Below the pieces are notes generated by a model, which had not been told where the DNA came from, ran no database searches, and was given only the letters and a program-made list of their open reading frames with translations. A program made the translations under genes and the position numbers. From NCBI RefSeq assembly GCF_003334355.1, contig NZ_QOWP01000004.1: a stretch of 64,000 nt of DNA, one strand, 5' to 3'. Shown here in pieces: positions 36,995-42,757 of this stretch. Origin of the DNA: Escherichia coli (lineage in GTDB: Bacteria > Pseudomonadota > Gammaproteobacteria > Enterobacterales > Enterobacteriaceae). Numbering within the stretch: position 1 is the first letter of the stretch; every line of letters begins with the position of its first letter.

Positions 36995-37085
36995 AAAAAA
37001 ATCCCGACCCTGAGGGGGTCGGGATGAAACTTGCTTAAGCAAGAAGCACTTAAAAAATTCGTTACACCAGGAAATCTGATGTGTT
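36995..37085 (-). ncRNA. dsrA: DsrA small regulatory RNA (activates rpoS translation, antagonises H-NS), with its own terminator hairpin
   Basis: Minus strand reads AACACATCAGATTTCCTGGTGTAACGAATTTTTTAAGTGCTTCTTGCTTAAGCAAGTTTCATCCCGACCCCCTCAGGGTCGGGATTTTTTT. Confidence 0.9.
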
Positions 37086-41377: not shown

Positions 41378-42298
41378 ATGCGTTTCCGCCAGTTGTTACC
41401 GCTTTTTGGCGCGCTGTTTGCGTTGTATATCATTTGGGGCTCAACCTATTTTGTCATTCGGATTGGCGTGGAAAGCTGGCCTCCGTTAATGATGGCAGGC
41501 GTTCGATTCCTGGCAGCCGGTATTTTATTGATGGCATTTTTGCTACTGCGCGGACACAAACTCCCCCCGCTACGTCCGCTGCTCAATGCCGCGCTGATTG
41601 GCCTGTTATTGCTGGCTGTCGGTAATGGCATGGTGACGGTTGCCGAACATCAAAATGTTCCTTCCGGCATCGCCGCCGTAGTGGTTGCAACCGTGCCCCT
41701 CTTTACCCTGTGCTTCAGCCGCCTGTTTGGCATTAAAACGCGCAAACTGGAATGGGTGGGTATTGCCATTGGGCTTGCCGGAATCATCATGCTCAATAGC
41801 GGTGGAAATTTAAGCGGCAATCCGTGGGGCGCGATTCTGATTTTAATCGGCTCGATTAGCTGGGCGTTTGGCTCGGTTTATGGCTCGCGCATTACCTTAC
41901 CTGTAGGGATGATGGCGGGTGCGATTGAGATGCTGGCGGCAGGCGTGGTGTTAATGATCGCGTCGATGATTGCAGGTGAAAAACTGACGGCACTCCCTTC
42001 CCTTTCAGGCTTCCTTGCGGTCGGCTATCTGGCGCTGTTTGGTTCGATTATCGCCATTAACGCTTATATGTATTTAATCCGCAACGTCAGTCCGGCTCTC
42101 GCCACCAGCTACGCCTACGTTAACCCGGTGGTCGCGGTCTTGCTGGGTACGGGACTGGGCGGAGAAACGCTGTCGAAGATTGAATGGCTGGCGCTCGGCG
42201 TAATTGTCTTCGCGGTGGTACTGGTCACGTTGGGAAAATATCTCTTCCCGGCAAACCCCGTAGTTGCGCCAGTTATTCAGGACGCATCAAGCGAGTAA
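41378..42298 (+). CDS. yedA: EamA/DMT-family transporter YedA (306 aa)
   Basis: ORF track; 10-TM drug/metabolite transporter architecture. Confidence 0.9.
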   Translation: MRFRQLLPLFGALFALYIIWGSTYFVIRIGVESWPPLMMAGVRFLAAGILLMAFLLLRGHKLPPLRPLLNAALIGLLLLAVGNGMVTVAEHQNVPSGIAAVVVATVPLFTLCFSRLFGIKTRKLEWVGIAIGLAGIIMLNSGGNLSGNPWGAILILIGSISWAFGSVYGSRITLPVGMMAGAIEMLAAGVVLMIASMIAGEKLTALPSLSGFLAVGYLALFGSIIAINAYMYLIRNVSPALATSYAYVNPVVAVLLGTGLGGETLSKIEWLALGVIVFAVVLVTLGKYLFPANPVVAPVIQDASSE

Positions 42299-42757
42299 AT
42301 GAATCCCCTGCGTGTCGATCTGCGCGCTGGCACCTTCGCCGCAGATCCACTCTTCCAGACGCTCGCTAAGCGCTTCATCCGTCAGCTTCTCGCGCCCACG
42401 TAATGCACACTCCCAGACAATCAATACGCGCCAGCCGAGTTCCTGCAAACGACTGATATCGCGGCGATCGCGTTCAACATTTTTACCTATCTTCTCCAGC
42501 CAGAACTCGGTTCGAGTCGCAGGCACTTTAAACAGATAGCAGTGATGATGATGCCAGAAGCAGCCGTGGGTAAATATCACGCAGCGATATTCATCAACGA
42601 CAAAATCCGGGCGTCCGGGCAGACTGGCGTCCTGAACGCGAAATGCCAGGCCCTGCCCGGTTAACAGACTGGCGAGGCGCTTCTCTATCGCCGTATCACG
42701 CGTGGCAATCGCGCGCATATTTTTGCTGCGAGTGGCCTTATCGTGAACGTCGGCCAT
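42287..42757 (-). CDS. vsr: Very-short-patch repair endonuclease Vsr (156 aa)
   Basis: Translation [32 protein letters not shown]...; start lies inside the 3' end of dcm in another frame. Confidence 0.93.

Follow-up and report, generated by a model that had tools for sequence, protein, structure and literature searches.

The overlap of dcm and vsr raises the question of whether a repair gene that begins inside the gene of a mutagenic DNA methylase is tied to that gene in its expression, or whether the nucleotides that both genes share have come about in another way. Dcm methylates the inner cytosine of CCWGG, and deamination of 5-methylcytosine leads to T:G mismatches; Vsr nicks 5′ of the T in a T:G mismatch and in this way starts very-short-patch (VSP) repair. 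The DNA analysed here, called the window, is a stretch of 64,000 nucleotides from Escherichia coli (contig NZ_QOWP01000004.1). An earlier note, made from the letters of the window, had placed the start of vsr inside the last codons of dcm in a different frame, with an overlap of 20 nt at positions 42738–42757, and had described this as the classical arrangement that couples the translation of Vsr to Dcm. The placement proved to be correct to the base and agrees with the annotation of an identical genome, and the names given to the two genes were borne out by matches to Pfam, to NCBIfam and to the PDB entry 1CW0_A. It was also rightly called well known, as the overlap is conserved, has been known from publications since 1990 and appears in the annotation of every E. 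coli genome; as a discovery it matters little. Which genes these are, their exact geometry, the codon at which vsr starts, the conservation of the overlap and the constraint of coding twice can be observed directly, and we consider it highly probable that the window holds the chromosomal dcm–vsr pair of E. coli and that, in addition, Vsr is made in low amounts from a message shared with dcm.

The identity of both proteins follows from profile matches and from their motifs. The catalytic domain of Dcm matches the Pfam family PF00145 at residues 87–448 (6.7e-77), its N-terminal domain matches PF18284 (4.8e-19), and the whole protein scores 951 bits against the NCBIfam model NF007772, which has a cut-off of 710. 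The C5-methylase motifs FAGIGG (I), PCQ (IV), ENV (VI), QHRER (VIII) and GNSV/FGNSVV (X) are found in the translation. Vsr matches PF03852 at residues 2–74 (2e-39, Pfam) and TIGR00632 at residues 1–118 (182.7 bits, cut-off 97.85), and it is equal to 1CW0_A, a chain of 155 amino acids beginning at Ala2, in 154 of 155 residues, the sole difference being S131 here in place of T, outside the core. The residues D51, H64 and H69, which we take to be catalytic, C66, H71, C73 and C117, presumably binding zinc, and the presumably intercalating aromatic residues F67, W68 and W86 are intact. From its near-identity to the characterised protein, Vsr of the window is predicted to nick 5′ of the T in T:G within CTWGG, and orthology, together with a locus that is syntenic and near-identical to that of K-12, suggests that Dcm methylates CCWGG. 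The Dcm encoded here is a solitary methylase, as the locus contains no partner for restriction.

The surroundings of the pair, with drpB and yedJ upstream and yedA and yedI downstream, are those of K-12, where the same genes (b1961/b1960) stand in the order yedJ-dcm-vsr-yedA with the same 20-nt overlap in the +1 frame (Sohail et al. 1990; Dar & Bhagwat 1993). The junction itself is the same in K-12 and in the window from −75 to +36. Nothing of substance differs between the two loci; the window comes from another E. coli lineage, and its Vsr departs from that of K-12 in the one residue named above. Many E. coli chromosomes match a 2.1-kb query around the junction at 100% identity, among them that of strain M217, to which the window is about 98.8% identical over most of its length. 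In the M217 locus PGAP annotates dcm at 2039–3457 and vsr at 1588–2058, which reproduces the overlap of 20 nt and coincides exactly with the coordinates in the window.

On the minus strand the end of dcm reads ...CAG CAA GAG GCA CAA CAT GGC CGA CGT TCA CGA TAA. The second base of the codon for His467 (CAT) is the A of the vsr ATG, so that vsr lies in the +1 frame relative to dcm. On the side of dcm the overlap comprises the last two bases of codon 467, codons 468–472 (G R R S R) and the stop codon, and on the side of vsr it comprises codons 1–6 and two further bases. The features and their positions are collected in the following table.

Table 1. Features of the dcm–vsr locus in the window and counterparts of vsr in relatives lacking dcm
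Feature	Position	Strand	Remarks
dcm, DNA-cytosine (C5) methyltransferase, 472 aa	42738..44156	(-)	ATG start, TAA stop 42740..42738; ORF listing, PGAP, profiles
vsr, very-short-patch-repair T:G mismatch endonuclease, 156 aa	42287..42757	(-)	ATG 42757..42755; ORF listing, PGAP, profiles
dcm/vsr out-of-frame overlap, 20 nt	42738..42757	(-)	Direct reading
Shine–Dalgarno-like AAGAGG of vsr, 6-nt spacer to ATG	42764..42769	(-)	Inside dcm codons 463-465; direct reading
yedJ (HD phosphohydrolase), gene upstream of dcm	44223..44918	(-)	Annotation
vsr of the dcm-less loci L126 (E. fergusonii, vsr 2477-2968), L128, L129, L130, L135, L136	Counterpart of window 42287..42757

The vsr gene and the oppositely directed yedA (+) also overlap, convergently at their 3′ ends by 12 nt (window 42287..42298). 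By gene calls, this convergent overlap measures 12 nt in Salmonella and Citrobacter koseri, 9 nt in E. fergusonii and 13 nt in Intestinirhabdus alba, and it is absent in Enterobacter sp. kpr-6 and in the locus L130.

How the overlap might bear on the synthesis of Vsr can be put as follows. Judging from the literature, vsr would have no separate transcription unit and would be the last gene on a (drpB-)yedJ-dcm-vsr message. Its ATG lies in the +1 frame within the final six codons of dcm, and its moderate Shine–Dalgarno (SD) sequence is written in dcm codons. Ribosomes that translate dcm would cross this start and terminate 17–19 nt past the vsr AUG, and because of this Vsr synthesis should depend on the transcription of dcm. 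Published genetics suggest that it depends on the translation of dcm as well, which could act by protection from polarity, by local re-initiation or unfolding, or by both. Cells that make the mutagenic methylase would then also make some of the repair enzyme, and the level of Vsr would stay low. For co-transcription, for the dependence on dcm translation and for the operation of a coupling mechanism we draw on the literature or infer them from the arrangement of the genes.

Vsr is reportedly a separate product of about 18 kDa whose gene is said to have no promoter of its own, and growing cells are said to be low in Vsr protein while Dcm is present. Published work treats dcm and vsr as one operon, and full-length transcripts obtained by SMRT-Cappable-seq span yedR(drpB)-yedJ-dcm-vsr. 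A published account citing Dar & Bhagwat 1993 reports that dcm-6, in which codon 45 is changed to a nonsense codon, has lost vsr activity as well. In our reading, what is firm in the dependence of vsr on dcm lies at the level of the transcript, by way of the shared message and the protection from polarity. Our scan of positions 41900–45200 gave no sigma-70 consensus match, this being a weak scan that misses the promoter of dcm too, and no convincing terminator-like site was seen in the scan of the dcm–vsr junction. The spacer between yedJ and dcm contains a perfect 7-bp inverted repeat, CGGCCAT-CTCAG-ATGGCCG, at 44166..44184 (-), which ends 10 nt upstream of the dcm ATG and has no T-run after it; this repeat could affect the translation of dcm or the processing of the mRNA.

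Whether dcm translation acts on vsr in a more direct way is less clear-cut, and the alternative that survives best is that the overlap is a historical by-product without translational coupling, vsr initiating de novo at its own SD. Only the transcript would then be shared, the dcm frame would run on to the first out-of-frame stop within vsr, and dcm nonsense mutations would act via Rho-dependent polarity, which could account for the effect of dcm-6 instead of translational coupling. We regard this explanation as possible though rather unlikely. It is opposed by the genetics, as efficient Vsr synthesis is said to need translation of the upstream dcm sequence. The properties of the vsr ribosome binding site (RBS) speak for it. 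The SD is of median strength, its duplex with the 3′ end of the 16S rRNA having −5.8 kcal/mol compared to a median of −5.9 kcal/mol for 62 neighbouring genes, and the accessibility is average, the ensemble cost of opening the region −15..+12 being 10.2 kcal/mol, which is the 56th percentile of the neighbouring genes. The mean opening cost is alike in sequences with dcm (10.7 kcal/mol) and in sequences without it (9.8 kcal/mol).

We also considered that the vsr RBS could be locked in a structure of the mRNA. The minimum free energy structure of a 151-nt fold at the vsr start puts the start region within a long-range helix. Nevertheless, the z-score of this fold is only −1.7, and a consensus fold of the junction from five sequences of five species has no covariation support (covariation term +1.92). 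With the opening energy being ordinary in the presence and in the absence of dcm, a sequestering structure was rejected as unsupported. As the SD, the opening cost, the z-score and the covariation are all unremarkable, there is no evidence for an RBS that is opened only by a ribosome translating dcm, which again suits an independent initiation.

The geometry points in the same direction. In the classical geometry of coupled genes the reading frames overlap by 4 nt or by 1 nt. The dcm–vsr pair has in common with such pairs (−4 ATGA; −1 TAATG or TGATG) that the genes are co-directional and, according to the literature, on one transcript and that the downstream start lies near and ahead of the upstream stop. 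With a spacing of −20, however, it has neither the −4/−1 geometry nor any support for a sequestered RBS, and termination–reinitiation is expected to be inefficient. In addition, Dcm and Vsr, unlike the products of classical pairs, are not subunits of one complex, and an equimolar output is not expected. Nine −4/−1 pairs are found in the window region, for example, fliN/fliM, uvrY/uvrC, and hprR/hprS. The wording of the earlier note therefore stands in part: coupling is the published view, resting on the operon, the joint transcripts and dcm-6, but an overlap of 20 nt is not the classical geometry. According to a 2025 review, coupling is best between −4 and +3, drops faster with growing overlap than with growing spacing and was undetectable at −25 nt in one systematic series. 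Such a decay at long overlaps, with poor coupling at −20 to −25 nt in reporter studies, favours the explanation as a by-product, and direct translational coupling at −20 is probably weak.

A further argument comes from physiology. VSP repair, and by implication the action of Vsr, is reported to belong mainly to the stationary phase, which is not what tight coupling to Dcm would give. If this pattern holds, the coupling would be loose and not the sole control of Vsr, since repair occurs mainly in the stationary phase and Vsr is said to be low during growth. Overproduction of Vsr has been found to be mutagenic, and weak coupling would suit an enzyme that is needed whenever Dcm is present and yet is kept scarce. 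On balance, nothing in the sequence requires coupling and the published genetics make it plausible; we lean towards the view that real translational coupling contributes to the synthesis of Vsr.

The conservation of the overlap bears on both explanations. Of 5426 complete E. coli genomes, 5368 have the dcm–vsr locus. We compared seven sequences that contain dcm, namely the window, two divergent Escherichia, Salmonella enterica, Citrobacter werkmanii, C. koseri and I. alba, and the 20-nt geometry is unchanged in all seven (four genera), although the Dcm proteins of the compared sequences are only about 83% identical to that of the window. The retention of the geometry across four genera argues against a mere by-product, whereas the position of the Dcm tail encoded in the overlap, which lies outside the Pfam methylase domain ending at residue 448, is in line with it. 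Of the 20 positions of the overlap, only 3 vary among these sequences, whereas the adjoining 20-nt blocks have 13 variable positions on the upstream side and 7 on the downstream side. Furthermore, the annotation of the region that corresponds to the window contains 13 co-directional overlaps, of 1 nt (four cases), 4 nt (five), 8 nt (two), 14 nt (one) and 20 nt (one), and that of dcm–vsr is the longest. Given its prevalence in E. coli, the shared geometry, the low variation and its length compared to the local overlaps, the dcm–vsr overlap exceeds the expectation by chance.

Two synonymous sites of vsr allow the effect of coding twice to be seen. The third codon positions +8 and +17 of vsr each serve dcm as the first base of a codon, that at +17 giving rise to the TAA stop. 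Both sites are fixed in all seven sequences with dcm, whereas in the relatives that lack dcm +8 is a T in four of six and +17 is a C in one of six. This pattern is the signature of dual coding, though in a sample that is small and phylogenetically non-independent. It makes the locus a clean teaching example, in that vsr has lost the freedom to vary at synonymous sites only where it is overlapped by dcm and in that a mutagenic DNA methylase is genetically linked to the repair enzyme offsetting its cost.

The second-longest same-strand overlap in the window is that of yecU (7859..8035) and yecF (8022..8246), which are co-directional and share 14 nt at 8022..8035 (+). In E. coli CM13 (L004:1500-2022) dcm is missing except for its last 72 nt; this remnant, annotated as a partial hypothetical protein, still overlaps an intact vsr by 20 nt, the deletion having kept the vsr start region. 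CM13 may be a laboratory strain, its record having 'not applicable' as the entry for host and for country.

In six taxa dcm is absent from the syntenic site, while an intact vsr with the same ATG stands there beside yedA-yedI: Escherichia fergusonii, Enterobacter sp. kpr-6, one member of the Enterobacteriaceae, Phytobacter palmae, Pseudescherichia vulneris and one metagenomic contig. A Dcm was not found by tblastn in the dcm-less loci tested, and Vsr is as conserved there as its neighbours YedA and YedI. In four of the six loci (L126, L129, L130 and L135) yedJ directly precedes vsr, its stop codon lying 15–24 nt before the ATG. That vsr is found at this locus with its usual start and without dcm is a point in favour of the overlap being a by-product. 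The strength of the SD argues against it: the energies range from −6.3 to −10.9 kcal/mol in the dcm-less loci (n = 6) and from −3.0 to −5.8 kcal/mol where the SD is embedded in dcm (n = 7), so that the two groups separate fully and the embedded SDs are consistently the weaker ones. This difference fits an initiation that is supplied in part by the upstream open reading frame, or a constraint by the coding of dcm. The dcm-less relatives with their stronger RBS are a natural comparison for the dependence of Vsr on dcm translation.

These loci also allow a different history to be conceived, in which dcm is a cassette that is present or absent at a fixed yedJ|vsr junction in the Enterobacteriaceae and vsr is the resident, which purifying selection has kept intact whether dcm is there or not. 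The frame of dcm would enter vsr up to the first +2-frame stop, and the SD would have been weakened after the capture, the output of Vsr becoming partly dependent on dcm translation. We hold this history to be doubtful, somewhat more so than the by-product explanation considered above. When the yedJ–vsr spacer of E. fergusonii was compared by eye with the yedJ–dcm spacer and the 3′ end of dcm of E. coli, no recognisable junction was seen. If true, the overlap would be the trace of a methylase that docked onto a repair gene already in place and would not reflect a design for coupling, and Vsr would have a role independent of Dcm in the species that lack dcm.

Outside of this group, in other bacteria and in phages, pairs are also known in which a C5-methylase gene immediately precedes a co-directional vsr, and the ends of the two often overlap. 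In Burkholderia phage KL3, where an M.EcoRII-like methylase and Vsr occur together with EcoRII-C, the methylase gene and vsr share 1 nt. A search for the Vsr motif F-x-x-G-C-F-W-H in one genome of each species gave at least 120 loci, which are a sample, not a census. Among the matches listed, at least 17 have a C5-methylase immediately ahead of vsr in the same orientation; eight of these 17 pairs overlap, by 1, 1, 8, 8, 8, 11, 20 and 49 nt, and four have gaps of 3–21 nt. No methylase was detectable nearby in 26 of 60 vsr loci with full flanks, again among the matches listed, and vsrA of Caulobacter has been described to have no adjacent methylase. Among these matches, the order of methylase and then vsr with touching ends is common, the length of the overlap is specific to the lineage and the 20-nt form is enterobacterial.

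All of this presupposes that vsr starts where it is annotated. Residues 1–13 of Vsr are invariant across 13 sequences except for A2V in two Escherichia and K7R in P. vulneris, and from codon 7 onward the vsr genes of the sequences with dcm differ at third codon positions only. The vsr frame is closed by a stop codon 18–75 nt 5′ of the vsr ATG, with no start codon in between, in Salmonella and in each of the six dcm-less loci, and in the dcm-less loci the sequence similarity stops precisely at this ATG. The alignment with TIGR00632 begins at residue 1 of Vsr and that with Pfam at residue 2, and a Vsr truncated by 14 residues at its N-terminus is reported to be diminished in activity. On account of the conserved residues 1–13, the upstream stops, the edge of similarity at the ATG and the impaired truncated protein, the start at 42757 is as secure as sequence analysis allows. 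All in-frame candidates further upstream are TTG codons (−51, −72 and −162), which we rejected because they lack conservation and because a stop codon closes the frame at −27 in Salmonella.

A start downstream of the annotated one would abolish the overlap. There is an in-frame ATG 39 nt downstream (Met14, 42718..42716), and crystal forms of Vsr (1VSR and 1ODG) do without the first 20–22 residues. A start at Met14 is nevertheless very improbable, as codons 2–13 are conserved at the level of the protein with synonymous variation, even where the DNA upstream of vsr is non-coding, and as the edge of similarity, the profile alignments, the chain of 1CW0_A and the diminished activity described above all speak for the residues ahead of Met14. 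Least probable of all is a Dcm–Vsr fusion made by programmed +1 frameshifting inside the overlap, for which the +1 frame of vsr and the 20 nt common to both genes would be suitable, as CAACATGGCCGACGTTCACGATAA contains no slippery or shifty motif, vsr has a proper SD and ATG, stand-alone orthologues begin at the same ATG, and Vsr has been studied and crystallised as a protein of 155–156 amino acids.

Some further features of the window may be recorded. The central region of the flagellin gene fliC (14220..15472) is mismatched to M217, only 374 nt aligning with 93% identity between flanks of about 98.8% identity, and this divergence is the expected variability of the H antigen. The gene of the inverse-autotransporter adhesin yeeJ at 56583..63734 (+) has an in-frame stop at 62229..62231 (…VVID*KLTLS…), which splits it into open reading frames of 1882 and 468 codons; it is intact in M217 (2358 aa), and in the strain of the window it is likely to be a pseudogene or to code for a truncated adhesin. 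The genes of the small RNAs DsrA (36999..37085 (-), 102.5 bits) and RseX (45488..45577 (+), 97.7 bits) and those of tRNA-Leu, tRNA-Cys and tRNA-Gly (4019..4321 (-)), tRNA-Ser (55188..55277 (-)) and tRNA-Asn (56269..56344 (+)) are all at the positions expected for E. coli.
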